64,000 nt of DNA from Candidatus Alloscybalousia intestinigallinarum (GTDB lineage Bacteria > Bacillota_I > Bacilli_A > RF39 > UBA660): positions 397 to 64,396 of the forward strand of contig DVKF01000005.1 of assembly GCA_018716115.1 (NCBI GenBank). Reading direction: 5' to 3'. Under the pieces are notes generated by a model. The model did not search any database. It was not told the origin of the DNA and saw nothing but the letters and a program-made list of their open reading frames with translations. Numbering within the stretch: position 1 is the stretch's first letter; each line of letters begins with the position of its first letter. The position numbers were made by a program, and so were the translations under genes. Of this stretch, positions 4,044 through 39,132 are shown one piece after another.

Positions 4044-4072
4044 ATCCCGACTCCCATTATTCTTATACAACA

Positions 4073-5479: not shown

Positions 5480-5490
5480 ATCAAAACCTC

Positions 5491-15123: not shown

Positions 15124-17565
15124 CTATTCTCCGATTCTTTCTATAACATGTTCATATGGTAAAATTTCTCTTACAAATGTTGAACGATTAGGCTCTGTAT
15201 AAGGACACAAGATAAAAATACGGTTCTTTGTTCTCGTTAAAGCGACATAAAACAATCTTCTTTCTTCACTGAAAGAGGTACCAGAACGTTCAAAAACACT
15301 AAGAAGTGGCTCATCTTCCATTTGACTAGGGAATCCTTTTTCCCCCTCTTCTGCATTTAGTAAGATAACATCATCATAACCTAGACCTTTCGAACTATGG
15401 ATAGTCATAAACTCAATCTGTAATTCAGGATGTTTCTTATCAATAACCCTATTTTCCGAAGGAACCGTTCCTAACATGAAATGATTACTTAAAATCTTAT
15501 CAATATCACTACGATATCTACCTAATAATAAGATTTTCCGATTAGGATCTTCCTGATAAATTTTATCTAAAATCAATGCTAGTGTATCATCAATCGACTG
15601 TAAATGAAGCCGTTGCATCTTCTCTCTTCTCCTACGACTGGCATATACTTTCTTACCTTCGGAGGTAAGTTCAAAACTATCATCATAGTAATAAATTTGT
15701 ACAGGATCATCTAAGTGTTTTGCGGATACTAATTGTTTATCGAAATACTCATCGCTTTGACTGATAAAGTCTCCAGCTACATCGATTAACTCCTGACTAT
15801 TTCGATAAGTATTGGTAATCTTAACAATTTCAGCATAACCCATATAACGATAAAATTGAGTAAACAAATCAACATCAGTACCAGAAAAAGAATAAATGGC
15901 TTGCCAATCATCCCCTACGGCAACAATCTTACTGTGAAATAAATCCGCAATATTTTTCGCTAATTGATAACGTTGTCTAGAAATATCTTGATATTCATCA
16001 ATGATAATATAATCATAATCCAAATTCTTTTGCTTTTTAGAAACTAATTCGACTCCTAAACTAGAATAATGAATCATATCTTCAAAATCCACTTTCCGTT
16101 GTTGATGAATATGATGTTGATAATAACGATAAAATCGCTTAGCTAAACGAAGTTGATGACGTAAAGCATCATCAGGAGTATTCGCAATAAAACGGTCAAA
16201 ATCTTCCTCACGATAATTTTCTTCCTTAAAACGAGCAATGAAAGCAAGTAATAAATGAATAAGTCGATAGAACGGACTATCTTGATTAGTCTCTAACAAA
16301 GTTTTTAAAATTTCTTCCGGTTCGCGTTCTTTCTTCACGACATTTTTCTCATTTAAATAAGTACCTAAATTCTTCAAAAAATATTCTTTTTTGTTTTCGT
16401 ATCTTCCATAAAGTTCTACTAACTCTGTTTGATATTTACGATGAACTTTTTTCTTTTCAAAAATCTCATTTTGATAATCCCGATCAAGCGAAGAAACTGT
16501 TCCATCTAAATTCTTTGTTGCCAAGCCATAGTACTCAATATAAATCGGATGATGAATATCGGATATCGTAAAATCTGGAGAATAACTTCTTCGACCATTT
16601 ACCACGTAAGGATAAACAGCTTCGTATTCATAAGGAATAGAATGCTTATATAAATAATTCGCAATTTTTACTTCTCCTTCAGATTTCATGTATTCGCCAC
16701 GAATTGAGCGATAATTCGGTTTTCTAGAACGATTTTTTATGCGTTTTTCAATTTCCTTTTCTAAAGTTCCATCCCTCTTACATTCTTTAATCTTACGCTT
16801 AACTAGATATTGAAAATATTCATCATAACTCTCATAAGTATAACATTCATCATAAAAAGAAACATAATCACCAAAAGCATCAATGACTTCTTTTAATAAT
16901 ACTTTATTAGGAAATATTCTCGTTTTGAAGCATTCTGCTAATACATGAAATTGATCTCCACTATTAATGACTTGAACTGGTTTCTGATCGAAAATAATTC
17001 GTAAAAACTCCATTCCTAATTTATGAAAAGTTAACACTCTAACTCCAAGTTGAAAATCATAATTAATCCTTCGATCTAATTCTTCAGCCGCTTTGTTCGT
17101 AAAAGCAAGTAACAATATCTTTTCACGTGGCACATTTTTCTTTTCTACTAAATATTTTACTTTGGCCGCCATCGTCGTCGTTTTTCCACTTCCCGCACCT
17201 GCGATGACTAATGAATAATCCTCATCAATTAAAATTGCCCGCCGTTGATCCTCATCTAACAGAATATTTGGATCCACTTTGGCAAACATCAAATCAAAGT
17301 AACGAGCATACTCCACTAACTTTTCTTGAAGAAAAGAATCGTTATGGGCTTTGATTAAATCGCTACCTTGATTCGTAATCTTCATCAGTTCTTGATATAA
17401 AGAAGATGCTTCATCCAAATATTTAGGAAACAACTCGAAAACATCCCGATATGTTTCCATAAAAGAATCATATTCGCTAGTCGCTATATAAGAGTCGCGT
17501 GATAAAAAGTCTTGAAAATCGTGAACACATGTCTCAGCCCGACTGTCAAAATAACTCTCTTCCAT
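15124..17565 (-). CDS. helD: UvrD/PcrA-superfamily helicase, HelD (helicase IV)-like.
   Basis: Motif I is LVIAGAGSGKTTTMAAKV. An N-terminal extension precedes the helicase core and C-terminal UvrD motifs follow. The likely true start is the ATG at 17565, with an AAGGGGTG RBS. Confidence 0.7.
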   Translation of the reverse strand: MEESYFDSRAETCVHDFQDFLSRDSYIATSEYDSFMETYRDVFELFPKYLDEASSLYQELMKITNQGSDLIKAHNDSFLQEKLVEYARYFDLMFAKVDPNILLDEDQRRAILIDEDYSLVIAGAGSGKTTTMAAKVKYLVEKKNVPREKILLLAFTNKAAEELDRRINYDFQLGVRVLTFHKLGMEFLRIIFDQKPVQVINSGDQFHVLAECFKTRIFPNKVLLKEVIDAFGDYVSFYDECYTYESYDEYFQYLVKRKIKECKRDGTLEKEIEKRIKNRSRKPNYRSIRGEYMKSEGEVKIANYLYKHSIPYEYEAVYPYVVNGRRSYSPDFTISDIHHPIYIEYYGLATKNLDGTVSSLDRDYQNEIFEKKKVHRKYQTELVELYGRYENKKEYFLKNLGTYLNEKNVVKKEREPEEILKTLLETNQDSPFYRLIHLLLAFIARFKEENYREEDFDRFIANTPDDALRHQLRLAKRFYRYYQHHIHQQRKVDFEDMIHYSSLGVELVSKKQKNLDYDYIIIDEYQDISRQRYQLAKNIADLFHSKIVAVGDDWQAIYSFSGTDVDLFTQFYRYMGYAEIVKITNTYRNSQELIDVAGDFISQSDEYFDKQLVSAKHLDDPVQIYYYDDSFELTSEGKKVYASRRRREKMQRLHLQSIDDTLALILDKIYQEDPNRKILLLGRYRSDIDKILSNHFMLGTVPSENRVIDKKHPELQIEFMTIHSSKGLGYDDVILLNAEEGEKGFPSQMEDEPLLSVFERSGTSFSEERRLFYVALTRTKNRIFILCPYTEPNRSTFVREILPYEHVIERIGE

Positions 17566-17609
17566 TATGAACACCCCTTATTCTATATATTAGTATACAA
17601 GAAAGTTGG

Positions 17610-18973: not shown

Positions 18974-19897
18974 ATGAAGGTGATAACTATGTATCCAATG
19001 TATCCATACATCGGAAAAAAGAAAATCTGTAAAGAAATCCCCCTTTCCTTTCCCGCAAGCCATCAAGATTCACAACCTGGAATCGAATACCTAATGGATC
19101 CTAAACCAATCTTTGACAATCCCAATCAACGAGGAAGTAATAAACTATTGGGGAAGGTGGCTGTCATTACCGGTGGTGATAGTGGTATCGGTAGAAGTGT
19201 CGCTGTTCAATTTGCGAAAGAAGGTGCCGATATTGCGATAGTTTATTTTGATGAAGTTGAAGATGCGGAATTCACGAAAAATTATATCCGCAAAATGGGA
19301 AGAAAATGCATCACAATTAAAACAGATTTAAGGCAAAAAGAAAATAGTCAATATGCCATAAATTGTGTCATCAATACTTATCATAAAATTGATATCTTGG
19401 TAAACAATATCGCTGTTCAATTTTTACAAGATAGTATTTTAAATATCACAGAAGAACAATTACTACTCACTTACCAAACTAATGTCTTTTCCTATTTTTA
19501 TATGATACAAGCAACACTACCTTATCTAAAAGAACACTCTACAATTATTAATACAACTTCGGTCACTGCCTATCAAGGAAACAAAAAATTAATCGATTAT
19601 AGTAGTACTAAGGGCGCAATTGTTGCCCTAACTAGATCACTTGCACTTTCCTTAGCTGAGAAAAAAATTCGTGTTAATGGTGTCGCACCCGGTCCGATTT
19701 GGACACCATTAATTCCTGCTTCTTATTCTGCTAAAGAAGTGGAAACCTTTGGAACCTATACTTCTAAAACACCACTCATGCGGGCAGGTCAACCATTTGA
19801 AGTTTCCCCATGTTACGTTTTTCTAGCTAGTGATGATTCTCGATATATGACTGGGCAAATTCTTCATCCTAATGGAGGAATTATTACTGGTAGTTAA
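18974..19897 (+). CDS. SDR family oxidoreductase (YghA/YhdF-like).
   Basis: The glycine-rich loop is KVAVITGGDSGIGRSVAV. The protein is about 300 aa with an N-terminal extension typical of this SDR subgroup. Confidence 0.8.
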   Translation: MKVITMYPMYPYIGKKKICKEIPLSFPASHQDSQPGIEYLMDPKPIFDNPNQRGSNKLLGKVAVITGGDSGIGRSVAVQFAKEGADIAIVYFDEVEDAEFTKNYIRKMGRKCITIKTDLRQKENSQYAINCVINTYHKIDILVNNIAVQFLQDSILNITEEQLLLTYQTNVFSYFYMIQATLPYLKEHSTIINTTSVTAYQGNKKLIDYSSTKGAIVALTRSLALSLAEKKIRVNGVAPGPIWTPLIPASYSAKEVETFGTYTSKTPLMRAGQPFEVSPCYVFLASDDSRYMTGQILHPNGGIITGS

Positions 19898-21681
19898 TCC
19901 TCACTCACGGTAAAAGAATGTGGATAATCACGAACTAATTCGCGAACAAAACAAGATTCTTTACCCTTGGGAATTAATAAATAAACATAATTTTTTGTTC
20001 TTGTTAAAGCGACATAAAATAATCTTCTCTCCTCACTAAAACGATAATTTTCTTCCTCGAGAGAAACAAATTTCAACACATCTGAATCTTCGATTTGATT
20101 AGGAAACCCCATCTTACCTTCCGCAACATGAAGCAAAATAACATTGTCTTCTTCTAATCCTTTTGATTTATGAACCGTCAGATAACGAAGAGGAATTTCT
20201 TGATAGGGTAAATAAATTAATTTACCTGTTTTTTCATCGTAGCGAAACTCCTGATCAATAGAAGAATAAATATCCCGATTATTTCTTCCCAACACTAAAA
20301 TAGCGGTTTGAAAACTATGATAAACTTCTTTGACGACTTTTTTGAAAGTTCGTACAGCATTCTGATAATAAATAAGACGAATTGGCTGTTTTAGTCTTTT
20401 CATTGCCTGTAAATTTTTCGAAAGTTGATGAGGGTTCTTCATTACAAAACTCCCAGCAACAGTAACTAATTCTTGACTATTTCGATAAGTTTTTTCTATT
20501 TTCATCACGATTGGATGAGGAAAATAACGTTCAAAATGAAGAAAAATCGATAAATCGCAGCCAGTAAATCGATAAATCGATTGAAAATCATCTCCTACTG
20601 CCATAAATTTCGCCTGTGTCATTTTCAAAATTGCCTGAACCAATTTGACACGTACCAAAGAACTGTCTTGATATTCATCAATAATTAAATAACGACACGA
20701 AAAAGGCATTCCTTTTTTTAAAACCGAATCTGTTGCCAATCGAATCATATCATCAAAGTCAATCTCTCCTTGAGAAGATAGCTCATTTTCATATAGGTGA
20801 TAAAATAAATACGCAAAACTTAAAAAGGTCTTTTGCTTTTCGCGCTTTCTCAAAGAAAAGCTTTTTTTATTTTGAGAAAAAAAGTGAATAAAATCCTCTA
20901 AAGAATAAGCATTTGTCTTAAATAGACGAATAAACTTAACGATTAACTTTTGAAACAACACCCGTTCTTCTTTAGGCAAAAAATGATGATAACTATACGT
21001 TGGTGAAAAAGGAAAATAATGAATTTCCAGATACCGAAGTAAACCTTTCATCATTTTAGGATAAAGAAAAATCGTAGTTTGAAAGTATTCCTCAATTAAA
21101 TATTCTAACAAATCAGCTGGTGCCACTCGATAAGGATAATGACTATTCTTTCTTAAAATATGAAGAGCTAATCGATGAAAAGTATAAATACGAATTGGAT
21201 ACTTAAATGTCTTATCGATACTTTTTTGTAGACTTTTGGTCGAATCATTAGTAAAAGAAAGAACGATAATCTCGGATGGAGAAATATTCAAACGCTCAAC
21301 AAGATAACGAATCTTGCCAATAATGGTAAGACTCTTACCGCTTCCAGCTCCCGCAATGACCAATTGATGAATTTCATCGGTAAGAACTACCCGTCTTTGT
21401 AAATCATCTAGGGAATAACCTTGAATATCCCGAAGAAGTAGGTCACAATTTTTTTCTTCTTTTTGAAGCCATAATTCATTCAGTTTGACTAAATATTCTT
21501 CCAAATTTTCGTAATCGTGACAAAAAGTAGCGAAGCTAATATCTTCATTTCGATATACAATTACTCGTTGATAAAGAGGCGCATACTTTTCTTTTAATGC
21601 CAAGCGTTTTCGATAATCCAAATAGCCATGATCAGAAAGTTCTCTAATCTGACGATAAAACTCATCTACTTGTTCTCGCAT
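19894..21681 (-). CDS. UvrD-superfamily helicase, short HelD-like paralogue.
   Basis: Motif I is LVIAGAGSGKSLTIIGKI. The protein is 595 aa. It is divergent from the 816-aa paralogue. Confidence 0.65.
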   Translation of the reverse strand: MREQVDEFYRQIRELSDHGYLDYRKRLALKEKYAPLYQRVIVYRNEDISFATFCHDYENLEEYLVKLNELWLQKEEKNCDLLLRDIQGYSLDDLQRRVVLTDEIHQLVIAGAGSGKSLTIIGKIRYLVERLNISPSEIIVLSFTNDSTKSLQKSIDKTFKYPIRIYTFHRLALHILRKNSHYPYRVAPADLLEYLIEEYFQTTIFLYPKMMKGLLRYLEIHYFPFSPTYSYHHFLPKEERVLFQKLIVKFIRLFKTNAYSLEDFIHFFSQNKKSFSLRKREKQKTFLSFAYLFYHLYENELSSQGEIDFDDMIRLATDSVLKKGMPFSCRYLIIDEYQDSSLVRVKLVQAILKMTQAKFMAVGDDFQSIYRFTGCDLSIFLHFERYFPHPIVMKIEKTYRNSQELVTVAGSFVMKNPHQLSKNLQAMKRLKQPIRLIYYQNAVRTFKKVVKEVYHSFQTAILVLGRNNRDIYSSIDQEFRYDEKTGKLIYLPYQEIPLRYLTVHKSKGLEEDNVILLHVAEGKMGFPNQIEDSDVLKFVSLEEENYRFSEERRLFYVALTRTKNYVYLLIPKGKESCFVRELVRDYPHSFTVSED

Positions 21682-21838
21682 CTATCCATCACCACAATCA
21701 CCTTAAAAGAAAAAGACAAGATTGTCAAAAGATAGAAAATGAAAAAGTGCAATGAAAAAAGAAAGAAAAAAAGAAAAAAAGGCCCAATTATAAAATTTTG
21801 AACCGTTTCTCTTCTACAATATAGAAAAACACTTTATT

Positions 21839-23980
21839 TTAAAATTCTAAATCTTTTTGCATAGCTTCTACTTCAATGTAATCCGTCAAATAGTGCTTTT
21901 TAGATAAATGCTTAGGTACATATTGGATATTTTTTTCTTGAATCACTAAATCTCCCGTTTCTAATTGGAACGGATCAATTGGCTCTTGTTTTATTGTATT
22001 TAATACTTGAAGCAATTCTTCTTTAGAGATTTCTTGATCAAGATGTAGAAAAATAGGAATCCGATAAATAGACTCAATATGAGAAGCAATCCCATGACGA
22101 AGAAAAACTAGTTGTAGAGTAGTCAAAGATTTTGTCCCTAAATAAGGAAATAAAGCATAATAATGATCAGAAAGTAGTACGATATGCTCATGATCTAAAG
22201 TGGCATTACAGAATAACTGTCTACTCTTGTCTAATAGATTTTTGGCATTAGCGCGTAAATAAGGATAAGAATCTTTACTACTTAAAATCTCTTTCATCTT
22301 TTTTAAGATTTTGGTGGCAATAATAATCTCGTCTGGTCCTTCCCAATAACTCTTAGAAATTCCTTTTATTTTTTTTACAAAAATCTGTCGCTTTTCCGCA
22401 TTAATTTCCACGACTCGCCAACTATTTCCTGCTAAAATCAATGTTTCTCCAACTGGCACCAAAGTATTTATAGTACCAATTTCTCTGGACTCTTCACGAA
22501 CCGAATATTCGATTTCATTTTCAAACACCGTTAAAAACTGATACTTAGAAATCGTTTGACTCCCCTTTTCGCCAATCAACAAATCTCCTTCTTCATCCAT
22601 TTCTAATTGATCAATTTCTAACCAATAATGTAGTAAGTCACGATAATCTTCCTGAGAAACTTGCTGGAATGGGGAAAGAGTAAGCATGTACTCTGCTAAA
22701 GCGCTTGGCGTTATACTTCCTATCGACGTTAAGTAACACATGGTTTGATGATATAAAAGCGGATAAGGAAGTTTAGCTTGCCGCAAAGGTTCAATCCACT
22801 TTTCCTTTGTATATAATTCAATCAAAGCAATGCAAAGAATCATATCCCAATCAATTTGTTGATAAAACTCTTTATTTTTCTGCTCAGTATCGTCTTGATC
22901 TTTTTTGTCAAACAGAAACATCATCTCACTGATGCCTGTTCTTCTACCGCTTCGACCTAACCGTTGAACAAAACTAGAAACACTATATGGTGTCCCTGTT
23001 TCAATAATTCGCTCCAAGTCGCCGACATCAATCCCCAATTCCAAAGTGACAGTCGCACCCACTACCGTCTTATAATCACTCGTTCTCATTTCCCGTTCTG
23101 CATATTCTCTTAAACCACCAGAAACATTGCCATGATGAGTAAAATAGAGATCGGGAGTCTGTTTTTTTGCCGCTAGTAATTTTAAATTGGCAATATTGAG
23201 TTCTACTTCACTTCTACTATTAGAGAAAATAATGCATCGTTTTCCAAAAGATAAATGATAAAGCTTATCATAGAAATCAGTCTCTACTACTGCATCATCA
23301 ATGGAAAGGTGAATCGTCCGTTTCTCCCCACTTGCTTGAGGAACTACGCACTTCCGATTCGTTCCTGATGATAGCCAATCTGCGACTTCTAAAGAATTTC
23401 CCACTGTCGCACTTAACCCTATTCTTCTTGGAGAACAACCAGTCAAGCGACTTAAGCGTTCTAACAAAGAAAGCAGTTGAATGCCTCGATTTTCTCCCAT
23501 AAAATAATGAACTTCATCAATCACGATATAACGTAAATCAGAGAAAAACAAAATAGCTTCCTGTTTACGAAAAGTAAGCATAGCTTCTAATGATTCCGGG
23601 GTAATTTGTAACAAACCTTTGGGATTCTTTCGTAATTTATTTTTATGTGAAACAGATACATCACCATGCCACTTATAAACTGGAATATCTGCTTCGATTA
23701 AAAGATCAGAAAGTCGTTCAAACTGATCGTTAATTAACGCTTTTAAAGGACTGATGTATAAGATACCAACTGAAGAAGAAGGATGTTGATAAAGATCTGT
23801 TAAGATTGGTAGAAACGCCGCTTCGGTTTTCCCACTAGCTGTACCACTAGATAATAATAAATGATTATCCGTATTTAAAATAATATCGATACTAGCCACC
23901 TGAATATCTCGTAACTCTTCCCAACGATTACGATAAATATAATCTTGAATAAAAGGAGCTAACTGATTAAAGGCACTCAT
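21839..23980 (-). CDS. DEXH-box (Lhr-like) superfamily-2 helicase, the third gene of a TerB-ATPase-helicase defence triad (Shango SngC-like).
   Basis: Motif I is SSGTASGKTEAAFLPIL. Motif II is VIDEVH. Motif III is SATVGN. Motif VI is QRLGRSGRR. The start overlaps the upstream ATPase gene by 4 nt. Confidence 0.7.
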   Translation of the reverse strand: MSAFNQLAPFIQDYIYRNRWEELRDIQVASIDIILNTDNHLLLSSGTASGKTEAAFLPILTDLYQHPSSSVGILYISPLKALINDQFERLSDLLIEADIPVYKWHGDVSVSHKNKLRKNPKGLLQITPESLEAMLTFRKQEAILFFSDLRYIVIDEVHYFMGENRGIQLLSLLERLSRLTGCSPRRIGLSATVGNSLEVADWLSSGTNRKCVVPQASGEKRTIHLSIDDAVVETDFYDKLYHLSFGKRCIIFSNSRSEVELNIANLKLLAAKKQTPDLYFTHHGNVSGGLREYAEREMRTSDYKTVVGATVTLELGIDVGDLERIIETGTPYSVSSFVQRLGRSGRRTGISEMMFLFDKKDQDDTEQKNKEFYQQIDWDMILCIALIELYTKEKWIEPLRQAKLPYPLLYHQTMCYLTSIGSITPSALAEYMLTLSPFQQVSQEDYRDLLHYWLEIDQLEMDEEGDLLIGEKGSQTISKYQFLTVFENEIEYSVREESREIGTINTLVPVGETLILAGNSWRVVEINAEKRQIFVKKIKGISKSYWEGPDEIIIATKILKKMKEILSSKDSYPYLRANAKNLLDKSRQLFCNATLDHEHIVLLSDHYYALFPYLGTKSLTTLQLVFLRHGIASHIESIYRIPIFLHLDQEISKEELLQVLNTIKQEPIDPFQLETGDLVIQEKNIQYVPKHLSKKHYLTDYIEVEAMQKDLEF

Positions 23981-25299
23981 AGTTCAAAACTCGCAAACTC
24001 ATCACTTACTTCTTGATTCATAAAAGCCTGAGACTGTTGTTGAAATTCATCACTCTGAATAATAGTAAGTAAATTCTTTTCTGGATACTGATAAAGCGTA
24101 TTTAAAAGCTCAATAAAATCACGGATAATTTCTCGTGGCGTAATATTCGTTACCGCGCCAACTCGACTAAATTCTATCTGAATAAAACTAATTAATTCAT
24201 CTAAAGTAATTTTTCTCTGATATTGATATAAATCAGCATGGATATCGGCTAATTTTTCAACTAAAATCGTCATTTCAGACGGCGTTAAAGGTTTTAAGCG
24301 AATGATAGGCGCTAAAAAATCACGGGCTTCATCGTTTGCAAAACGACTATCCTCTAAACGAGATTTTAAAGCTTCATAACTGAAAATACCACGTCTCGTA
24401 TCTTCGACACATTGAGGAGTACCACCCATAATTACCCCTAAATACTCGGCTTTTCCTTGTAAAATATCATTATACATCGTCAAAATCTTTTCATAATTAT
24501 TCTGTCTTGCAACACTCATTGGAATCTTATATAAGTTAACGAGTTCATCGATCAATACTAACATGCCTTTATAACCAGCTTTTACCATGAAAACCGCTAA
24601 TAATTTTACATAGTCATACCAATTTTCATCAGTAATCATAATATTAACACCCAATAGTTCCTTACATTCACTCTTCGTCGTGATTTCACCACGAAGCCAT
24701 CTAAGTGCAGCTCCTTTTTTCTCGTCGTCTCCTTCTTTATAACCATTCCAATAAGTCAAGATAATTTTCGCAAAATCAAAACCATGAACCATCCCCTCTA
24801 CCTGACTAACTACTCGGTAAATTTCTTTTTCTACTTGCTCTGAAAATTTAGGATCATCAACTTTAAGATCACCATTCATCAATACATCATTCTGAATAGA
24901 AGAAATCCATTTTTCTAAAATAAGAGGTAAGGCTCCACCATCTGGTTTTGTCTTGGTCGACATATTCCGAACCAATTCTCGGTAAGTCGCTAAACCTTGC
25001 CCTTTCGTTCCCGTTAGCCTTCTTTCCGGGGATAAATCGGCATCCATGACCACAAAGCCTTTATCCATCACATGATTTCTAATCATCTGTAACAAAAAGC
25101 TCTTTCCACTACCGTACTTTCCTACAATAAAGCGAAAAGTTGCGCCACCTTCTTCAATAAAATTAACATCATTAAGTAAAGCATTAAGTTCCTTTTCTCT
25201 TCCTACCGCAATATAACCTAATCCTGTTCTAGGAACAACCCCGCCCTTTAAAGAATTTAATAAAATCGTTGCGATTCGTTTTGGCACTTTACCATTCAT
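23977..25299 (-). CDS. P-loop ATPase (SngB-like, DUF2791-type).
   Basis: Walker A is VGKYGSGKSF. Walker B is MLVLIDELV. The gene lies in an operon between the TerB-type protein and the helicase. Confidence 0.65.
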   Translation of the reverse strand: MNGKVPKRIATILLNSLKGGVVPRTGLGYIAVGREKELNALLNDVNFIEEGGATFRFIVGKYGSGKSFLLQMIRNHVMDKGFVVMDADLSPERRLTGTKGQGLATYRELVRNMSTKTKPDGGALPLILEKWISSIQNDVLMNGDLKVDDPKFSEQVEKEIYRVVSQVEGMVHGFDFAKIILTYWNGYKEGDDEKKGAALRWLRGEITTKSECKELLGVNIMITDENWYDYVKLLAVFMVKAGYKGMLVLIDELVNLYKIPMSVARQNNYEKILTMYNDILQGKAEYLGVIMGGTPQCVEDTRRGIFSYEALKSRLEDSRFANDEARDFLAPIIRLKPLTPSEMTILVEKLADIHADLYQYQRKITLDELISFIQIEFSRVGAVTNITPREIIRDFIELLNTLYQYPEKNLLTIIQSDEFQQQSQAFMNQEVSDEFASFEL

Positions 25300-25347
25300 C
25301 GTAAACCCTCCTTGTATATTTTTGTTTATTTCTTTTTGATTTTTCCT

Positions 25348-27015
25348 TTAATTTTTCTCTTTCCCACTATGAAGTACTATCTGTAACTCTTTCCAATAAT
25401 CCTCATAGATATTAACTTGATCTCCTAAATCTTCAATTAAATTATCTCCAATATAGTCGAGAGCTTTTAAATTGATATCTTCTAAAACAACCTCTAATAA
25501 TTGAGCTTCTTCTTTAACAATTGTTTCTAGTTCATTTCTCGAAGCTCCATTTATGATATTATTCAAAATCTTTTTCTCAAAAGAAGTCAAATGATCAACC
25601 AATATATCCATTCCCATTTCTAGCTCTGAATCTTGTTCTGGGATTAAACTAGAAGCACTCTCTAAAGTAGATGGTGAAGAAGAAGGTTCTAACTGTATAG
25701 ACGTATCCGTTTTTTCTTCTTCAGTAAGTATTTTTTCTTGAATTCTAACTGTCGATTCTCGAATATTTTGAAAAGAATCTTTATCGATAACGACACTTTG
25801 CCTTCTCTTAATTAAAGCCTCTTCTTTTAATTGTTTCATCTTCTCATCTAAAAATAAATCTACGGCCTTTACTATTGTCTCTATAAAGGCATCATCTTCT
25901 ACCAATGGTAATAAGACTTTTCTTTGTATACTAATTTTTCCTAAGTCTTTCAAAGTAAGAGTTAACTTTCGTTTATAATTCGTCTTTTCCCGAATCCTAA
26001 TTTCTACCATTTTTAAGATAATCCCCATAACTACCCGAAGATTAGGGCTCTCCATAAACATTTTCTTATTACAAATTTTCTTTTGGAATGTATATTGTTC
26101 GATTGGAGAAAAATCAATTTTATTTTCGTAATTTTCTCGTTGTTCCACATAAGGTAACTGTCGAAATAATGGATAATCTGAAATTGTATGCATCTTTCCT
26201 AGAACTAAAGCTTTAAAATCAGCATTATGTTCTGCAAAATAGCGACTAAGATGTTCAAAAACAGTAGGAATGGCTTCTTCGATAAAATAACCATATGTAC
26301 TTTCATAAAATTTACTTTTTTTCACCTTATAACTGGCTTGTTTATCCAAATAAGTCAAAAGTCCTCGATAGTCACCTTGAACGATTTTTATTCTCGCTTG
26401 ATAAGTCTCCCAATCAGTAGTAGACAATAGCCTAGGAAGAATATCATTATAAGAAACAGGAATAGCATAATTAACCATAAAATCTTTCAAAGCAATCACT
26501 AAAATCTGACGGAAATATACTTCCTCAATATCGTTCCAATAGACTTCTAAAATTTTTTTCAATTTTGAATAAGCATCAAGAACAGAGTCAGCACCAATCA
26601 AATTAATTAACTCCGCAAAATAAATCAAAAGATAACCGCTAAAAATTTTAGGGTATTCACCCTTTCGAATTTTAGAACGCCAAGTAAAATAAGTTCTGAG
26701 TTCCGGCACTCTCAATGAGTCGTAATTCCAGGAATAGAAAAAAACTGGCGAAATCACTTGTGGATAATCATCTTCAACATCAACCATAAACTTTGCTTGC
26801 TGAATAAAGATCCAATTTCTAATTTTCGCATAATCTGTTCCTAAAAATTCCACTTGAAAATACGTATCTTCAGCGATTCTTTTCATTTCTTTTAACTTCG
26901 TTAACATCTTCTGATCATTAGAAAAAGAAGTATCACTCGCATATTTAATTTTTTCTGATACATAACTAGGTAAAGATTGATTAAGCTCTTCTAATACTTT
27001 TTCTCTTGTTTCCAA
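25348..27015 (-). CDS. Large TerB-N/TerB-C-type protein (SngA-like). I could not verify the domain call by eye.
   Basis: The 555-aa ORF is the first gene of the triad. It has a TTG start with a strong GGGGGTGA RBS. The assignment rests on gene context. Confidence 0.4.
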   Translation of the reverse strand: METREKVLEELNQSLPSYVSEKIKYASDTSFSNDQKMLTKLKEMKRIAEDTYFQVEFLGTDYAKIRNWIFIQQAKFMVDVEDDYPQVISPVFFYSWNYDSLRVPELRTYFTWRSKIRKGEYPKIFSGYLLIYFAELINLIGADSVLDAYSKLKKILEVYWNDIEEVYFRQILVIALKDFMVNYAIPVSYNDILPRLLSTTDWETYQARIKIVQGDYRGLLTYLDKQASYKVKKSKFYESTYGYFIEEAIPTVFEHLSRYFAEHNADFKALVLGKMHTISDYPLFRQLPYVEQRENYENKIDFSPIEQYTFQKKICNKKMFMESPNLRVVMGIILKMVEIRIREKTNYKRKLTLTLKDLGKISIQRKVLLPLVEDDAFIETIVKAVDLFLDEKMKQLKEEALIKRRQSVVIDKDSFQNIRESTVRIQEKILTEEEKTDTSIQLEPSSSPSTLESASSLIPEQDSELEMGMDILVDHLTSFEKKILNNIINGASRNELETIVKEEAQLLEVVLEDINLKALDYIGDNLIEDLGDQVNIYEDYWKELQIVLHSGKEKN

Positions 27016-27050
27016 ATGATATCACCCCCAGTCATAGAATATTCACTATT

Positions 27051-27078
27051 AGTATACCACCAAACAAATGTACGTCAA
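27051..27078 (-). promoter_or_regulatory. Sigma-A promoter for the triad: TTGACG, 16 nt spacer, extended -10 TGGTATACT.
   Basis: Near-consensus hexamers were read on the minus strand about 35 nt upstream of the RBS. Confidence 0.5.
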
Positions 27079-27236
27079 GGTAATCAAGGAGAATTACTTA
27101 GAAAAACAACTAAACTTCCCCATCCATTAAACGTTTTTAGTATACCATAAAACAAACAAAAATAATACTAGATGATTGGCTAGAAAAAAGAAATATGATA
27201 TACTAAGAACACTTTAGAAAGCGAGGAAAATATTAG

Positions 27237-27806
27237 ATGGAAAATGTAGAATTGGTTGGCATTGCTTATGAGATTGGGGAATGTGGACCAAACCCTCAAG
27301 CGATTAGTATAATTATATATGAAGTATGGCTAGACGAGGGAAAGATAAAATTTGGAAAAAGCCAAGAAGCTGGAATGTTTAAATGTGGCTCTACAATAGA
27401 ACAAGGATTATTAACTAATCGTATTAGAGAATTAAGAGAAAACGGATATTTAACTAGAGTAGAATGGCTCGAAAAATATAAGAAAGAAAAAAATAAAATA
27501 GAAAATCTTTCACCAGAAGATATTAGAGAAAGCAGTCTATTTTCCTTCTTACAACCTGATGATTATGAAAAGGCTGCCCTACTTTGCCTAATCATTAAAA
27601 AACTAGGTTATTTCAATCTCGAAGATATAAAAATACTCTATATGATTATCGAAGAATATGAACTTCACCAAGATGTAGATATGATTGCCAATATTACGAC
27701 TTTTCTAGCAGAAACATTATGCAAAAAACAAGTGGAAGATACAGAACTATTCGAGAAACAAAAAAAGAAGGGACTTGTCCTACCATTTAAAAAGAGAAAT
27801 AAATAG
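27237..27806 (+). CDS. Hypothetical protein.
   Basis: The ORF encodes 189 aa with no recognised motifs. Confidence 0.45.
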   Translation: MENVELVGIAYEIGECGPNPQAISIIIYEVWLDEGKIKFGKSQEAGMFKCGSTIEQGLLTNRIRELRENGYLTRVEWLEKYKKEKNKIENLSPEDIRESSLFSFLQPDDYEKAALLCLIIKKLGYFNLEDIKILYMIIEEYELHQDVDMIANITTFLAETLCKKQVEDTELFEKQKKKGLVLPFKKRNK

Positions 27807-27821: not shown

Positions 27822-28064
27822 CTATTCGACCAATAGATGATCCTTTTCAAGGTCATGCAAAAATCGATACTCGCTTTTCTTTATTTTGGCATTCTTATTG
27901 ATAAATACTTCTCTACTAGAAATCAAAATTTCAATCACAATTTGTCTTAGTCCTACTTTAATTACTTTCTTGTAAGTAGGAAACAATAAATTCTCTTGAT
28001 AGCGATATCGATAATATTCAAGTATTTTTAAATCGATATCTCCTCTAATTCTAATCGCAATCAC
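27822..28064 (-). CDS. Small hypothetical protein downstream of the sigma factor gene.
   Basis: The 80-aa ORF runs co-directionally with the sigma factor gene. Confidence 0.3.
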   Translation of the reverse strand: MIAIRIRGDIDLKILEYYRYRYQENLLFPTYKKVIKVGLRQIVIEILISSREVFINKNAKIKKSEYRFLHDLEKDHLLVE

Positions 28065-28185: not shown

Positions 28186-28773
28186 TTATAAAAATTCCCG
28201 CAAATTTTCTTTTAAAATTTTTAAACATCGGTGATATTCTTTGGAAATAAAGGGCTGTTTAACGCCAAATTTTTGAGCAAGTTCTCCCTGAGTCATATGT
28301 GAATAAGAAAAAAGAGAAAAAGAGTGACAAATAATTTCACGATGAAAATCATCTAACTTGCTAATTTCACGAAATAGTGCTTCATATAATTCTGCTTGTA
28401 CCAATTGTTCATCAAAACAAAGAAAGTCTGTCTTTGCTACATAATACTCTAAAGCAACAGTATCCTTATCAGAATAAATTTCTTGATCCAAAGAAAGGTC
28501 TTTTCCCCCAATCGGGCGTCTTTTTTGCGCATGGCACATTCTCATATAATTCGCAATTTCATTTTTTATACATTTACAAAGAAAAGTACTGATTTTATAC
28601 CCCTTAGCTGGATCAAAGTTTCTAACCCCTTCAATTAACCCAATCTTTCCGATTGAAAACAGATCTAAATACGATAAATTTAAATCGTTATATTGAAAAT
28701 GATACCGCTTAATTACAAGCCCAATCAACTTTATATTTTCTAAAACTAACCGCTCTTGCTGAGGTGTGATCAT
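28186..28773 (-). CDS. RNA polymerase sigma factor, sigma-70 family (a small SigH-like or group-3-like protein).
   Basis: Region 2 is DLFSIGKIGLIEGVRNFDPAKGYKISTFLCKCIKNEI. A region-4 HTH is present (MTQGELAQKFGVKQPFISKEYHRCLKIL). Confidence 0.7.
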   Translation of the reverse strand: MITPQQERLVLENIKLIGLVIKRYHFQYNDLNLSYLDLFSIGKIGLIEGVRNFDPAKGYKISTFLCKCIKNEIANYMRMCHAQKRRPIGGKDLSLDQEIYSDKDTVALEYYVAKTDFLCFDEQLVQAELYEALFREISKLDDFHREIICHSFSLFSYSHMTQGELAQKFGVKQPFISKEYHRCLKILKENLREFL

Positions 28774-28979
28774 ACTTCTCTCCTCTTAACTTTTCTTTAA
28801 TAACAACATATTATCTACTAATAAGTATTGTAAAAAAGGATAGAAATAAATTCAAGTATCTTATATAAAAATTTAGCAATAAAACGTCCAAAACTATCAA
28901 TATCTAAGCATCAAAAAAGTTGACAAATTATTTTCGTTTTTAAATAGCGAAAACAACTAATCAACCTTAAACAAAATAA

Positions 28980-29237
28980 TTAAAGAATATTTTTTAAACT
29001 AGTTTCAAAAGCCGTTAAACCATATTCCTTATTATAATAATTAGGAAATTCATTTAAATGTGCTAAAGCAATTTTCATTATTAAAATCAAATCGTTATTC
29101 GTCACATTAGTTTGTGGATTCTGTGTTCCATGTTCTAATTCTATATCTACTCCCGTGATTAAATCATCAAGGGTAAACTGATCAAATTTAACACCAAGCA
29201 TTTTAGCGGCAGATAGAATTTCTTGTCTACTATACAT
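28980..29237 (-). CDS. Small hypothetical protein (85 aa).
   Basis: The ORF-track frame is the only evidence. It contains an LGVKFDQ...ELEHG...KIALAHL pattern. Confidence 0.4.
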   Translation of the reverse strand: MYSRQEILSAAKMLGVKFDQFTLDDLITGVDIELEHGTQNPQTNVTNNDLILIMKIALAHLNEFPNYYNKEYGLTAFETSLKNIL

Positions 29238-29340
29238 AGTATCGTATCCTCCTAATAAATAGAGTATGTATAGAATAAAAATCCGTGAAAAGTGATTCTA
29301 AACAAATATCCACCAAACTTAGTAAAGAATTAAAACTAAA

Positions 29341-30360
29341 CTATTTTACCTTTTCTTTTTTGTCCTTATTTTTAGACACTTTTCTACCTTTATTTTTGGC
29401 AGTTATACTATGGTAATAAGCCACAATATAGTCTTCGAGAGAATTCATTGTAAGAACCAAGAATTCATAATTGCTCATATAGTGTAACACTTCAGAAAAT
29501 CGACCTACTGAATAATATCCAGATACTAAATCTTCATCACTCTCTAAATCATCGTAGCTATCCTTAAAGAAAGTAATAAAATAAGGATTATTCTCGAAAA
29601 TTTTGTCTAAATACTGATGAGCCTTTTCATCATTACCTAATTTGTAATATAAAGCAAATAATGGAAATAACATTTCTAAATTATTTTCAGGATATTTCTT
29701 ATACAATTTTAATGCCTCTTTTTCATTTTCTAATAATGCATAAGTAGCCATTAGTAAATAACGAGCGCCTGTATTATCACTGTTATTCAATTTTAAGATT
29801 TCCTTACAAGATTCAACTCCTTGCGTATATTTACCATAATCAAGCAGATTAGTCGTCTTTAAATATAATCCACGTATATAAGGACGAGTTTCAAAAATAC
29901 CATAAAACATTCCAATGTTGTCTTTATCAAAAAAGCCCTCTTTTTGTAATCTTTCCTTTTCTTTAGCTAATCCTTCAGCTAATAATTCATCTCTTTTTAA
30001 TGGATTTTCTTCTAAACTAACTTGAAACAACAAAGCATCAAAGCAAGCCGGACAAAATTCATAAGCTTCTTTAGCTAGTTTTACCGCTTTCTTTTCTGAA
30101 GTAGTATTCTGTGCTTTTTCTAAAAGTGCATAGGCCTTATCTAAATCAGTTTCTTCATATTCTAATTCACCAGCATTATATTTTTGAATAAATTCCTGCA
30201 ATTTTTCGTTAAGTTCCTTTTCATTTTTTGCATCAGAATTTTTCAAAAAGTCATTTAACATATTATTTAATTGATTATTCATACTATCTACCTCCTCATA
30301 ACAACAAATAATATTAAATCTTCCTGATTTTATTTTCGATGATATTAATAATTGGGTCAA
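29341..30360 (-). CDS. TPR-repeat protein.
   Basis: Repeated helical 34-aa-like units carry A/Y/L signature positions (AYALLEKA, AKEAYEF, ATYALLENEKEALKLY). Confidence 0.55.
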   Translation of the reverse strand: MTQLLISSKIKSGRFNIICCYEEVDSMNNQLNNMLNDFLKNSDAKNEKELNEKLQEFIQKYNAGELEYEETDLDKAYALLEKAQNTTSEKKAVKLAKEAYEFCPACFDALLFQVSLEENPLKRDELLAEGLAKEKERLQKEGFFDKDNIGMFYGIFETRPYIRGLYLKTTNLLDYGKYTQGVESCKEILKLNNSDNTGARYLLMATYALLENEKEALKLYKKYPENNLEMLFPLFALYYKLGNDEKAHQYLDKIFENNPYFITFFKDSYDDLESDEDLVSGYYSVGRFSEVLHYMSNYEFLVLTMNSLEDYIVAYYHSITAKNKGRKVSKNKDKKEKVK

Positions 30361-30708: not shown

Positions 30709-31464
30709 TTATAACTCTTGAATATATTTTTCCATTTTATCATATACAAATTTATAAATATCTTCCTCAGATACTACATCAATTAATCTTACGCTTGCGT
30801 ATAAAGATATATCTTTAGCTATTTCTTTGTAAATACTATTTTTCACCTTATTTCCATATTTGTCATATATATCTTTTTCCGCTTTTATTATACCTAATAC
30901 AATATGCTTTTCACTAGAACTTGAACGCCAAGTAAGATTTCTAAATCTTTCTGGATTTTCAATAACAAATCTTGTCAATTCATATTTGTCATCTAATCTT
31001 TCATCTACTGTAAGTGCAACTCTAAAATAACATCTTGATAATACTCCAAAAAATATACTTCTTCTATCGCTTTGACCAAATACCCAGTGGTTTAAAAATG
31101 TAGAATCTGACTTTACAGGCATAGCTTGAATTGCTGCTTTGTATCCTTTCTCAAAATTAACCCAAGCCCAAAATCTCTCATCAGTAAGTATATATAAAGG
31201 TAATTCTTTTAATGATTCATATAAAATTATAGAATTATCAAAATCAACTTCGTCATAATTACCATTTAAACTAACTTTTAATTCAAAATCATTTATTTTT
31301 TGTTTCATTGGTTCATATAGTTTTCCATTATATATCTTCTTTATCCATTCAGAATTGTTTTTTTCTGTTTTTAGATAATTATTAGCAGTTAAGCTATTAG
31401 ATTTCAATGTTGCTAGCGCTTCATCTGTCATAAATTCAATATTAATTTTATTATTCATCATCAT
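30709..31464 (-). CDS. Hypothetical protein, last gene of the island operon.
   Basis: The protein is 251 aa. Its start overlaps the upstream gene by 14 nt. The sequence is very AT-rich. Confidence 0.55.
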   Translation of the reverse strand: MMMNNKINIEFMTDEALATLKSNSLTANNYLKTEKNNSEWIKKIYNGKLYEPMKQKINDFELKVSLNGNYDEVDFDNSIILYESLKELPLYILTDERFWAWVNFEKGYKAAIQAMPVKSDSTFLNHWVFGQSDRRSIFFGVLSRCYFRVALTVDERLDDKYELTRFVIENPERFRNLTWRSSSSEKHIVLGIIKAEKDIYDKYGNKVKNSIYKEIAKDISLYASVRLIDVVSEEDIYKFVYDKMEKYIQEL

Positions 31465-32365
31465 TATCTCCTCTTACCAATTTACTAAATTCCTGTTTAA
31501 ACAAATCACTTATAGCTGTTACACTAGCATAATTCATTAATTGCTGAGATAATTCTACTACATTTAACTTTTTAAATTTATTTTCATCTAAATCTTCGTT
31601 AAATTGATTTTTATAAGCATATTCAATTGAGCCAAACCAACTATAATCGATATGTATATTATCCAAAGTAACTTCACCATATAACATTTGATCTTGAATA
31701 CTTTGTAAACAAGAAATTAATGCTGGTATTGTTAAAATTGAAAAAAATATTTCTTGATAATTATCATTATTTTTCATATTTTCATAACATCCAAATTGTT
31801 CCTCTGGCAAATGAATGACTATTTTTTTGCTAGTAGGTTCAATTTTCATCACATTATTACTAATGAATTCATCCTTTATTATAGAAAATATTGATGAAAC
31901 CTTTTTATCTTTACTTTCATCATATTCAATTTTTGTTGTAAAACCGTCATCTATTGCTAGAATATCATATTTTTCAATATTAAAAGTATAGCCTTGATAA
32001 TCTTCTAAAAAATCATCACTTATGTAAGAAAAATCTTCTGTAGCATAAACAAAACATGAAATAACTACCTGATCTCTTAAATTCATTACTGGTACAATTA
32101 TGTCTTTTGGATTTCTTGAAATTTTAAAACTTTTCCTGAAAATTGTTGAAGAACATTCAACTATTACAGTAGCATCAATTTTTCCTTGTTCAAATAATTC
32201 AATCAGTGTTTGATTATCTAATTCTATATGAGCATTTTTTAATACTAAGTTATTATCATCTTCTACATCATCATATATTAATGCAAAATTTGAATTTTGA
32301 AAGCAACTAGCATTTTTTGAATTATTAATTGTAGGATATGGAAATAATTTTTTACCTATTCGCAT
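31451..32365 (-). CDS. Hypothetical protein in the island operon.
   Basis: The protein is 304 aa. It overlaps the genes on both sides. Confidence 0.55.
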   Translation of the reverse strand: MRIGKKLFPYPTINNSKNASCFQNSNFALIYDDVEDDNNLVLKNAHIELDNQTLIELFEQGKIDATVIVECSSTIFRKSFKISRNPKDIIVPVMNLRDQVVISCFVYATEDFSYISDDFLEDYQGYTFNIEKYDILAIDDGFTTKIEYDESKDKKVSSIFSIIKDEFISNNVMKIEPTSKKIVIHLPEEQFGCYENMKNNDNYQEIFFSILTIPALISCLQSIQDQMLYGEVTLDNIHIDYSWFGSIEYAYKNQFNEDLDENKFKKLNVVELSQQLMNYASVTAISDLFKQEFSKLVRGDNDDE

Positions 32366-34253
32366 ACATTTTCACCTCAAAAGTATACAATTCTCTTAAA
32401 TCAGTATCAAGTTCTATTCTATACTTCTTACCTTCCTCTATTTTTATATTTTTTAATTTACTGTCCACAATATCTAACGGTATACCATTTACTCTACAAC
32501 CACTTATATTAATGTTATATCTAGTATTAGAATCATCCAAATATTTTAACTCTAATTCGCAATTATTTTCAGTATATAAAGATTCAAAAGAAATTATCAA
32601 TTTTCCAGATTTTTTATCAGGAACAAACAATCTGTATTGCATACCACTCAATTGTGCAAGTGTCATTATTTCTTTATCAGAATCTTCATTTGTATACCCA
32701 GTTTCATTATTAGAATCATGTGTATCACCACCTGATGAATTATTACTACCATTTGGAATTGGTGAGCCTTCACCATCTTCTTTATGATCACCTAATCCCG
32801 GTAAAAGAGAATTGCCTTCATCATCTGGTTTAATTCCAATTTTATCTTTAACCTTATTTTTTACTTTTTTAACAATTTTGGGTTTTTCTATTATGACATC
32901 TGCTTCTCCAGTTCCAATATTACTATCATCTATACCTGGTAAGTATTCACTAGCACCTTCTACATCAGTTTCTTTTATTCTACTTGTTGATAGTTTATCA
33001 TATACATAATTAATAATTGAATCATTTAAAGTCTTTAATATATGACGTAACTCACTTTTCAAATCATCATCATCAATTCTATTAATTTCCCAATTTGTAT
33101 GTTGTGGATTTTCAATATCTCTTAATAATGAATTTAAAGTGTTATCACCTATAATACACATTGCTGAACATGGAACGTTTGATATTCTTGGTAAAGTTTT
33201 TATTTTCATATATGGATATCTTATCATTACACATTCATTAGTTGCCAAATCAGATTCATCCTTACTAAAGCCCTTTAGCAAAATATCCACTTTACCATAA
33301 TCTTCTATCTCTAAAGTATTTTTAAATACGTCGGAATCAGTTAATAATATATATTGTGATTTAATATTATTGTAACTTCTTTTTAAGATATAATCATCAT
33401 TTTCAATTAATTCACCTAAATTATTCTTATTAATTGTTAAATCATCAACTACAATCTCAAGATCTTCATAATATATAGCACACATAAAACTATCTAATAT
33501 TTTTGTTATGAGTTCTTTTTTCCAATTATTATTTTTTCTAAACCCTAATATATAAATGTCCGTACCTGTTGTTTCCCTTTTATAAGACTTATCTAAATTA
33601 AAATCTTCAAGTATAGGCATATTTTTATTATCAAGTCCAAAATAACCGGTTCCCTGTGTTTTTTCATCAGTACCTTCCATTCTTGTCGAACACAATTTGC
33701 ATATACCTATATATCCTTTTTCACCATCCATATTTAATGTTGAATAAAAAACTGTATTAAATGAACTAGCAACAAAAGAAGCAAACTTACCTATACCTTT
33801 TGATCCACCTTTCGAACCATTCTTATCACTTATTCCAGTACCTCGTGTTAGAAGGTAGAATGGACTATCTTCTAAATCATTTATGCCTTTTAATCCAACA
33901 GTATTAAAGTCACTTACTCTAATACAATGTATAATACTATTATTTAAATTGTTCTTCATATTAGAAAGTGTTTGATATAACTTTGAATTGTTTTTTCTAT
34001 AATCAAGACATGAATTAATTTCCTTTTCTATCCTATCTACACCTGGAATTTCATTCCTCAGTATATCAAAAGTTTTAAATTCAATTCTTGCAGTTTCTCC
34101 AGCTATTCTTGCATCAATTGAATTTTGACATGACTCTCTAGCAAGTGATGCTATTGGATCTTGGGCAAACGTTTCCATATCCGGTGTATCTATTCCTTGC
34201 TCTTGAAGATAATTATTTCCTGGGAATCTCCACATTTTTTCTTTATCAAACAT
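32352..34253 (-). CDS. GHKL-superfamily ATPase (HATPase_c_3, MORC or MutL-like) with a ~350-aa C-terminal extension.
   Basis: The N-box is LARESCQNSIDA. The G1 box is TRGTGISDKNG. The G2 box is GSKGIGKFASF. Confidence 0.7.
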   Translation of the reverse strand: MFDKEKMWRFPGNNYLQEQGIDTPDMETFAQDPIASLARESCQNSIDARIAGETARIEFKTFDILRNEIPGVDRIEKEINSCLDYRKNNSKLYQTLSNMKNNLNNSIIHCIRVSDFNTVGLKGINDLEDSPFYLLTRGTGISDKNGSKGGSKGIGKFASFVASSFNTVFYSTLNMDGEKGYIGICKLCSTRMEGTDEKTQGTGYFGLDNKNMPILEDFNLDKSYKRETTGTDIYILGFRKNNNWKKELITKILDSFMCAIYYEDLEIVVDDLTINKNNLGELIENDDYILKRSYNNIKSQYILLTDSDVFKNTLEIEDYGKVDILLKGFSKDESDLATNECVMIRYPYMKIKTLPRISNVPCSAMCIIGDNTLNSLLRDIENPQHTNWEINRIDDDDLKSELRHILKTLNDSIINYVYDKLSTSRIKETDVEGASEYLPGIDDSNIGTGEADVIIEKPKIVKKVKNKVKDKIGIKPDDEGNSLLPGLGDHKEDGEGSPIPNGSNNSSGGDTHDSNNETGYTNEDSDKEIMTLAQLSGMQYRLFVPDKKSGKLIISFESLYTENNCELELKYLDDSNTRYNINISGCRVNGIPLDIVDSKLKNIKIEEGKKYRIELDTDLRELYTFEVKMYANR

Positions 34254-36753: not shown

Positions 36754-36974
36754 AATTCCACCCTCTTTTGTCCTTTTTTCTTATCCTTATCAAATAATTC
36801 TTTTTGTTTATCTAATTCATTTTGAATCAGATTAAATATTTCATCTATTTGATCATCAGTATATTCATAAAATGAAGTATTAGATAAATTATGTAATTTT
36901 GAAATTAAATCTACTATTTTATTTACTCTATTGTTAGCAATTCTTTTAAAATTTTCTTGCTTGATATTATTCAT
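36750..36974 (-). CDS. Small protein (~74 aa) and first gene of the five-gene core. I chose the start at MNNIKQ because it has a GGAGGT RBS.
   Basis: The ORF-track frame was trimmed to the ATG with a good RBS. A TTGACA -35-like hexamer lies upstream. Confidence 0.45.
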   Translation of the reverse strand: MNNIKQENFKRIANNRVNKIVDLISKLHNLSNTSFYEYTDDQIDEIFNLIQNELDKQKELFDKDKKKGQKRVEL

Positions 36975-37073
36975 ATAATACCTCCAAATCAATCTTAGGG
37001 TATCACAAAAATATAATATTGTCAAAATATTTTTAAAATATTATTAAAATGTTATACAAAAAAAAGAGTATTT

Positions 37074-37964: not shown

Positions 37965-38027
37965 TTTGACCTCCTATTATTTTATTAAATTATACCATTA
38001 TTTTCTTGTTTTTAAAATATTTTTATG

Positions 38028-39055: not shown

Positions 39056-39132
39056 TGGGGCGAATAGTGGGGATCGAACCCACGCATACCAGAGCCACAA
39101 TCTGGCGTGTTAACCACTTCACCATATTCGCC
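39056..39132 (-). tRNA. tRNA-His (anticodon GUG) with an encoded G-1 and CCA.
   Basis: The reverse complement folds as a cloverleaf. The acceptor is GCGAATA/TATTCGC with G-1:C73. The anticodon stem is CCAGA/TCTGG with loop TTGTGGC. The T-arm is GTGGG-TTCGATC-CCCAC. The gene is 77 nt. Confidence 0.85.

Follow-up and report, generated by a model that had tools for sequence, protein, structure and literature searches.

Shango is a three-gene system that protects Escherichia coli and Pseudomonas aeruginosa from phages; the protection is modest on plates and stronger in liquid culture (10.1101/2022.05.11.491447; 10.1101/2022.11.11.516204). We describe here a locus whose three components and their order are those of the Shango of E. 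coli and of P. aeruginosa PA14 (Millman et al. 2022; Johnson et al. 2023). It is located in a 64-kb stretch of DNA from Candidatus Alloscybalousia intestinigallinarum, which was analyzed over its whole length and is called the window below; its guanine plus cytosine (GC) content is low, ~0.30-0.37. The three genes, sngA, sngB and sngC, very probably make up a complete, expressed Shango-type system, organized as one operon that appears to extend from an extended -10 promoter to a terminator consisting of a hairpin and a T-run. The system type is already known, and the locus is an ordinary further member of it in uncultured gut Bacilli.

In P. aeruginosa, the Shango of cDHS1 lies in a hotspot of the chromosome, with core genes and a gene for a small RNA at its sides, and the locus in the window is placed likewise, here with the gene for tRNA-His. 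It differs from the E. coli and P. aeruginosa systems in its host, an uncultured low-GC lineage of gut Bacilli, and in being fixed in every species of the genus that was found, five in all, instead of being patchily distributed. A Ter-associated three-gene system had been predicted by Anantharaman, Iyer and Aravind (2012), as cited in 10.1101/2022.05.11.491447 and 10.1101/2022.11.11.516204; in the form in which it is cited, it comprises the same set of a TerB-N/TerB-C protein, an AAA+ ATPase and a superfamily 2 (SF2) helicase, and Shango is the newer name for it. The operon of the window is distinguished from a ter operon by the lack of ter genes, no Ter family having been found among the ~40 window open reading frames (ORFs) scanned in all, and by the lack of the PF05099 core.

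The BrxD-BrxHI module of bacteriophage exclusion (BREX) types 2 and 6, reportedly described by Goldfarb and co-workers in 2015, is a homologous pair of an ATPase (PF10923) and an Lhr-like DEXH helicase, to which the matches of SngB and SngC are significant but secondary. In contrast to BREX, the locus is without a PglX methyltransferase, a PglZ phosphatase or other BREX genes, and has a TerB-N/C protein where the BREX core would be. SngC has been grouped with BrxHI, DruE and DpdJ (PMC12278908). When compared with the Lhr-core and MrfA helicases (Mycobacterium smegmatis Lhr, 5v9x; Bacillus subtilis MrfA, 6znp), SngC is only ~23% identical, has no ligase, metallophosphoesterase (MPE) or MrfB nuclease as partner (a ligase is absent among its neighbours) and is always coupled to SngA and SngB.

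Organization and expression signals of the sng operon

The three genes are adjacent and co-oriented, in the order A-B-C, with one conserved promoter on the 5' side and a terminator-like hairpin on the 3' side (Table 1). The gap between sngA and sngB is 48 nucleotides (nt) long, and sngB and sngC overlap by 4 nt (23977-23980). A first-pass annotation of the window had proposed a minus-strand operon of three genes for proteins of 555, 440 and 713 amino acids (aa) with this overlap, and had given the first gene a TTG start, a strong ribosome-binding site and a near-consensus promoter. The genes were found exactly where it had placed them and the signals were confirmed by direct reading.

The promoter, P1, agrees with the consensus at 10 of 12 positions and carries the TG of an extended -10 element; it was detected by a consensus scan and the sequence was also read directly. 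Promoter-like matches were as frequent in the region as in shuffled sequence (29 observed, 28.7 expected), and the consensus match of P1 taken alone is therefore no proof. The alignment of five species, namely the window species and the four congeneric species L014, L015, L016 and L017, showed that the P1 block is almost invariant, whereas the intergenic background is far less conserved. A second extended -10-like element, located further upstream, is kept as TG(G/T)TATACTAAAA in all five species.

The motif TG(G/T)TATACTAA is thereby present twice 5' of sngA, the two copies lying ~85-88 nt apart and both being conserved in the five species. For the upstream copy, a role as tandem promoter, operator or regulator-binding site is possible. 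No RNA element was found in the leader by Rfam, whose only matches were the tRNA and a NiCo riboswitch lying at a distance.

The window and L015 have TTG as the start codon of sngA, and L014, L016 and L017 have CTG. An in-frame TGA is located 9 nt 5' of this start, and the next ATG, GTG or TTG codon is the ATG at codon 37; residues 1-36 of SngA are conserved across lineages. The arrangement suggests a deliberately weak, non-canonical start codon behind a strong Shine-Dalgarno sequence.

On the 3' side, the terminator-like hairpin has a stem of 7 bp and is located 35 nt past the sngC stop codon, before the next gene. It was overlooked by the consensus scan, its loop being longer than 8 nt. The promoter-like site of the downstream helicase gene (TTGACA-17-TAAGGT) is located after the hairpin. 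Since the promoter, the hairpin and a separate site for the next gene delimit them, the three genes can be regarded as a self-contained operon.

Within the sngA-sngB spacer (25300-25347), L006, L009, L010 and L013 differ from the window by a 16-nt T-rich indel at ~25328.

Identification of the three Sng proteins

For all three proteins the best, end-to-end PADLOC match was to the respective Sng model, and the ORFs are full length when compared with these models. The E-values obtained with the hidden Markov models (HMMs), from 1e-49 to 1e-215, place the matches of the sng genes far beyond chance. Together with the Pfam domains of SngA, which scored above their thresholds, these matches uphold the Shango identity that the first-pass annotation had suggested.

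SngA matched the PADLOC SngA model with an E-value of 3.6e-49 over residues 39-545, nearly its full length. The search of the 555-aa protein with TerB-N and TerB-C profiles, which had been put forward as a check of the prediction, was positive. In Pfam (reporting limit for the SngA domains, E≤0.01), TerB_N was found at residues 65-166 (nt 26518-26823; 2.4e-16, 60.5 bits, cutoff 25) and TerB_C at residues 397-544 (nt 25384-25827; 9.4e-13, 49.1 bits, cutoff 26.3). An alignment of 20 SngA sequences revealed an invariant LRTYFTWR in TerB_N and an acidic motif, GD..E...YEDY, in the C-terminal TerB_C. The AlphaFold2 model of SngA (predicted local distance difference test, pLDDT, 83) is mostly helical, apart from a small beta-sheet (beta-hairpin) domain (residues 272-321) and an acidic/Ser linker (residues 430-464), which is disordered; the fold matches to solved structures were of winged-helix size only. 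The SngA family is large: a representative library of 1.84 billion proteins yielded, at E≤1e-30, at least 1744 clusters, mostly as full-length matches, and SngA is only 20-25% identical to its remoter members.

SngB is a P-loop ATPase of the BrxC/BrxD family PF10923 (Pfam, 9e-166). The PADLOC SngB model gave 1.6e-186 and 618.7 bits, compared with 3.4e-51 and 172.7 bits for BrxD, and the NCBIfam BrxD equivalog NF033438 was not reached (175.8 bits, cutoff 350). A solved relative of SngB was not found by sequence.

SngC is an SF2 DEXH helicase, in which Pfam identified DEAD and Helicase_C domains and a weak Lhr winged helix. The PADLOC SngC model gave 1.1e-215 and 716.6 bits, compared with 6.6e-128 and 425.9 bits for BrxHI, and the scores against the Lhr-type equivalogs remained far below cutoff (TIGR04121, 198 bits, cutoff 850; PRK13767, 179.6 bits, cutoff 849). 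The AlphaFold2 model, built with 31 homologues (pLDDT 87.7; predicted template modelling score, pTM, 0.86), showed the four-domain Lhr-core: RecA1, RecA2, winged helix and C-terminal domain. No further domain was found in the last 170 residues of SngC by Pfam at E≤10; at this limit, the centre of SngA and the C-terminus of SngC yielded nothing but WH_Lhr. As SngC is wholly accounted for by the Lhr-core, nothing is left over for a nuclease. Homologues of SngC at ~50% identity are abundant across Clostridia and Bacilli.

The Walker A and B motifs and the SF2 DEXH motifs expected from the first-pass annotation were all found intact: in SngB, Walker A at G60-KYGSGKS and Walker B at L247-VLIDE; in SngC, motif I at T46-ASGKT, motif II at D155-EVH, motif III at S190-AT and motif VI at Q339-RLGRSGRR.

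Conservation, exchange and function of the operon

The sngABC proteins were found in exact form on many metagenome contigs, and the GTDB species representatives that carry the locus are metagenome-assembled genomes labelled uncultured Bacilli or Tenericutes. The gene order of the window was found to be kept in the other four species: the 80-aa ORF, the divergent 189-aa ORF, sngABC, the gene for a 595-aa UvrD-like helicase, short-chain dehydrogenase/reductase (SDR) genes and the gene for an 816-aa HelD-like helicase. Between the window and these species, SngB and SngC are 93-95% identical in amino acid sequence and SngA is 79-82% identical. All three genes are under purifying selection. The ratio of nonsynonymous to synonymous substitution (dN/dS) of SngA is 0.12-0.14, and SngA evolves 3-4 times faster than SngB and SngC.

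The nucleotide identities of the operon and of its flanks followed different patterns. In the core flanks, the window and L014 are 93-94% identical, L015 and L016 ~90%, and the remaining pairs ~83%. In the sng genes, L014, L016 and L017 are 94-98% identical to one another, while the window allele is 81-88% identical to all others. When the window is compared with L014, synonymous sites have diverged more in the operon (dS 0.77-0.87) than in the flanks (dS 0.28-0.43). In a sliding comparison, L014 and L016 proved 93-99% identical (~97%) over a block that begins just 5' of the 80-aa ORF and reaches the 3' end of sngC; on both sides of it, identity drops abruptly to ~70-83% (~80%), and the same contrast was seen against the window. 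The sharp edges of the block indicate that a unit of ~6.1 kb, containing the 80-aa ORF, the 189-aa ORF and sngABC, has moved between species through recombination in the flanks. Such a history of cassette exchange is not that of a core gene.

The two small ORFs of the cassette differ in constraint. The 80-aa ORF, for which no family match was found, is strongly constrained (dN/dS 0.06-0.11). The 189-aa orphan ORF, which has a good ribosome-binding site, evolves fast (dN/dS 0.44-0.64), gave no match in Pfam, PADLOC, NCBIfam or PHROG, and has homologues in 6 clusters only, mostly 72-98% identical and one distant at 36%. It may or may not belong to Shango. A small upstream gene as a universal part of Shango was considered and discarded, the 80-aa ORF not being homologous to the 74-80-aa ORF of a second lineage.

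In this second lineage, SngA is 43-48% identical to that of the window, and SngB and SngC are 77-80% identical and of identical length. The tRNA-His gene and a pair formed by an Mbeg1-like gene and a gene for a 912-aa AAA ATPase (42226-46264, minus strand, in the window; 460-4452 in L024) are located a few kb 5' of the triad in both lineages, with a variable segment between. The 912-aa ATPase has weak TniB, STAND and IetA-like matches. Downstream of the triad the second lineage differs from the window, with genes for a NUDIX protein, an amidohydrolase, SpaA and glycosyltransferases. In L022, of a sister lineage, a type II CRISPR-Cas locus (186-5682: cas9, cas1, cas2 and a weak Csn2-like gene) immediately precedes the triad, ~800 nt 5' of sngA. 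SngB-like genes were found on 692 plasmids, and in a plasmid of Clostridium estertheticum a triad of TerB-N protein, ATPase and helicase lies between a relaxase and an IS110 element. No phage-borne relatives were found in 50,697 phage records.

A number of observations weigh against the identification of the locus as a Shango defence system. Each of the five species and each of the 22 conspecific contigs read carries the triad, always at this locus, and defence systems are usually patchy. The dN/dS of SngB (0.035-0.045), and of SngB and SngC overall (0.03-0.045), is as low as that of neighbouring core genes, and the GC content of the operon is the genome's own. The mosaic between species was drawn from metagenome-assembled contigs, in which chimerism is possible; three independent assemblies, carrying alleles slightly different from each other, were concordant. 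No effector domain, nuclease or toxin, was recognised in the system. In SngA, the canonical TerB core PF05099 was not detected by Pfam at the limit given above, so that only the TerB_N and TerB_C modules remain of the TerB protein of the first-pass annotation; a profile search of PDB sequences with SngA was empty and the fold searches gave no TerB-like structure. As SngA has neither a canonical TerB domain nor a solved structural relative, a sensor role for it is conjectural. The literature searched gives no mechanism for Shango.

An alternative explanation is domestication of the triad as a housekeeping processor of nucleic acids, acting for example in Lhr-like repair or in the resolution of RNA:DNA hybrids or of replication-transcription conflicts beside the HelD-like helicases, and not in immunity. 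Besides the uniform presence of the locus and its native GC content, such a function is favoured by the dN/dS of SngB and SngC, as low as that of HelD816 and SDR265, by their identity between the two lineages, which exceeds that of the neighbouring AAA protein (57-61%), by the Lhr-core fold of SngC, Lhr being a repair helicase, and by the preservation of the tRNA-His-to-Shango arrangement in the second lineage. We consider it improbable. The cassette was swapped between species, and its sharp boundaries run exactly around the operon; close relatives occur on plasmids, beside a relaxase and insertion sequence (IS) elements, and beside CRISPR-Cas9; the downstream context varies between lineages and the HelD-like gene was not co-transferred; the proteins score as Sng and not as Lhr or ligase-associated equivalogs; and homologous triads are anti-phage by experiment. 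The first-pass annotation had linked conservation of the triad in all related genomes to a housekeeping function: the conservation was found in every related genome recovered, but the cassette exchange speaks against the function.

It is still less probable that sngB and sngC are what remains of BrxD and BrxHI after the decay of a BREX system of type 2 or 6 and that sngA is unrelated to them. The family assignment of SngB, PF10923 being the BrxC/BrxD family, and the matches to BrxD and BrxHI had made this the alternative of the first-pass annotation, which had itself pointed out that PglZ and PglX are missing. No PglZ or PglX domain was found in any of the window ORFs of at least 430 aa that were scanned. 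The Sng models score far higher, the BrxD equivalog stays below its cutoff, and a TerB-N/C gene, apparently co-transcribed with the pair, is conserved with it in every relative, including those on plasmids and in the second lineage; the alternative was given up.

Least probable of all is a decaying, non-functional relic, for which the split sngC of L006, L008 and L012 and the weak TTG or CTG start of sngA might be cited, because the ORFs are full length, dN/dS is 0.03-0.14, the catalytic motifs are intact, the promoter and ribosome-binding site are conserved, and the splits, considered as pseudogenization of sngC and rejected, are runs of N or single-base assembly indels and not mutations.

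Within the identification as Shango, we tentatively raise the possibility of a genus-wide, fixed "core defence locus" rather than a sporadic accessory. Its diversity would be generated by swaps of whole 6-kb alleles through recombination in the flanks, without mobile-element genes, and the two small ORFs would serve it as accessory or regulatory parts specific to the lineage. In an extreme version, the triad may have turned into a housekeeping helicase machine.

Beyond the domains, motifs, operon structure and constraint described above, we infer a division of labour, a polarity and a target for the Shango proteins. SngA would be a sensor or scaffold, with winged-helix-like modules and an acidic C-terminal module, for which earlier comparative work predicts metal or ligand binding. 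TerB proteins may survey the membrane (10.1101/2022.05.11.491447). Upon an infection cue, SngA would engage the ATPase-helicase pair SngB-SngC, a two-gene module that BREX types 2 and 6 contain as BrxD-BrxHI. Like Lhr, SngC would move along single-stranded nucleic acid in the 3'->5' direction, and it would unwind or strip phage replication or transcription intermediates. Protection would then come from interference with phage DNA metabolism and not from cell suicide; interference is proposed because no nuclease or toxin was recognised. In this genus the operon keeps to one site, with the integration hotspot at tRNA-His a few kb away, and species swap its alleles through homologous recombination between their conserved flanks. 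That SngA evolves faster may fit a subunit that touches a variable phage factor, and relaxed constraint may explain it as well.

The locus provides a clean, intact example of Shango from a poorly known low-GC gut lineage, and its three compact proteins, with high-confidence models, could help structural work on the system. The almost frozen SngB and SngC, as against the faster SngA, offer a hypothesis on which subunit meets the phage, and the exchange of the operon at a fixed site offers one for the spread of defence alleles without mobile elements. What the locus adds to the known system, namely fixation at one locus in a genus, exchange of the whole cassette and the weak start codon of sngA, is modestly interesting.

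Genes in the vicinity of the operon

Table 1. Positions in the window of the sng operon, its signals and the genes around it.
Feature	Position	Strand	Description
sngA	25348..27015	-	555 aa, TTG start
sngB	23977..25299	-	440 aa, ATG start
sngC	21839..23980	-	713 aa, ATG start
Promoter P1	27051..27078	-	-35 TTGACG (27078-27073), 16-nt spacer, extended -10 TGgTATACT (27059-27051)
Second extended -10-like element	27139..27147	-	TGgTATACT, from sequence; without a good -35
sngA Shine-Dalgarno and start	27013..27029	-	GGGGGTGA (27029-27022), 6-nt spacer, TTG
Terminator-like hairpin	21774..21804	-	GGTTCAA, 10-nt loop, TTGGGCC, then T7; from sequence and RNA fold
189-aa orphan ORF	27237..27806	+	divergent; in the cassette, within the block common to L014 and L016
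80-aa ORF	27822..28064	-	GTG start; cassette boundary (left edge) just 5' of the ORF
595-aa UvrD/helicase-IV (HelD-like) gene	19894..21681	-	downstream of the operon
816-aa UvrD/helicase-IV (HelD-like) gene	15124..17574	-	downstream of the operon
Low-GC insert	30709-38867	-	adjoins tRNA-His
PDC-M33 A	32352-34253	-	PADLOC candidate system, 5e-140
PDC-M33 B	31451-32365	-	PADLOC candidate system, 1e-57
PDC-M33 C	30709-31464	-	PADLOC candidate system, 8e-38; DUF6339
835-aa protein	34246-36753	-	sigma-70 region 4 helix-turn-helix
D12 N6-adenine methyltransferase	37074-37964	-	
Fic protein	38028-38867	-	PDC-S72 match, 3e-82
tRNA-His	39056-39131		

The block between the operon and tRNA-His has a GC content of 0.20-0.28, markedly below that of its surroundings. 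The defence-island neighbourhood predicted near tRNA-His was found in the insert adjoining this gene, which contains the PDC-M33 A/B/C genes, the D12 methyltransferase and the Fic protein (Table 1). The insert is missing from L016, where the tRNA is directly followed by a tetratricopeptide repeat (TPR) gene, and of its genes only the one for the Fic protein was found in L014.

The cassette is separated from the island (28186-30360, minus strand) by a gene for a 195-aa sigma-70-family factor, a DUF5661 gene and a gene for a TPR protein. The sigma factor is weakly SigK/SigE-like and has a PHROG sigma factor match (3e-28). The equivalent position in L014 is occupied by different genes, including one for a 354-aa radical-SAM protein.

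The operon had been placed between two HelD-like helicase genes in the first-pass annotation; in fact both are located downstream, on the same side. These paralogous genes are parted by two SDR genes and differ in dN/dS, 0.12-0.15 for the 595-aa protein as compared with 0.02-0.07 for the 816-aa protein. Both count among the conserved core genes, and the exchanged block includes neither. A Gabija system was considered for them and discarded: the GajB-model matches of the UvrD-like genes are generic, the best NCBIfam match is helicase IV, and GajA is absent. The 595-aa helicase was also rejected as a fourth Shango gene: a promoter-like site of its own follows the hairpin, the recombination tract does not include it, and neither the second lineage nor the plasmid has it downstream of the triad.

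Elsewhere in the window, a gene for a 286-aa SIR2-family protein was found at 47090-47950. The NiCo (nickel/cobalt) riboswitch (63047-63131, minus strand) scored 72.3 bits, with a gathering score of 37, and is located directly 5' of the gene for an 828-aa P-type cation ATPase (60466-62952, minus strand).

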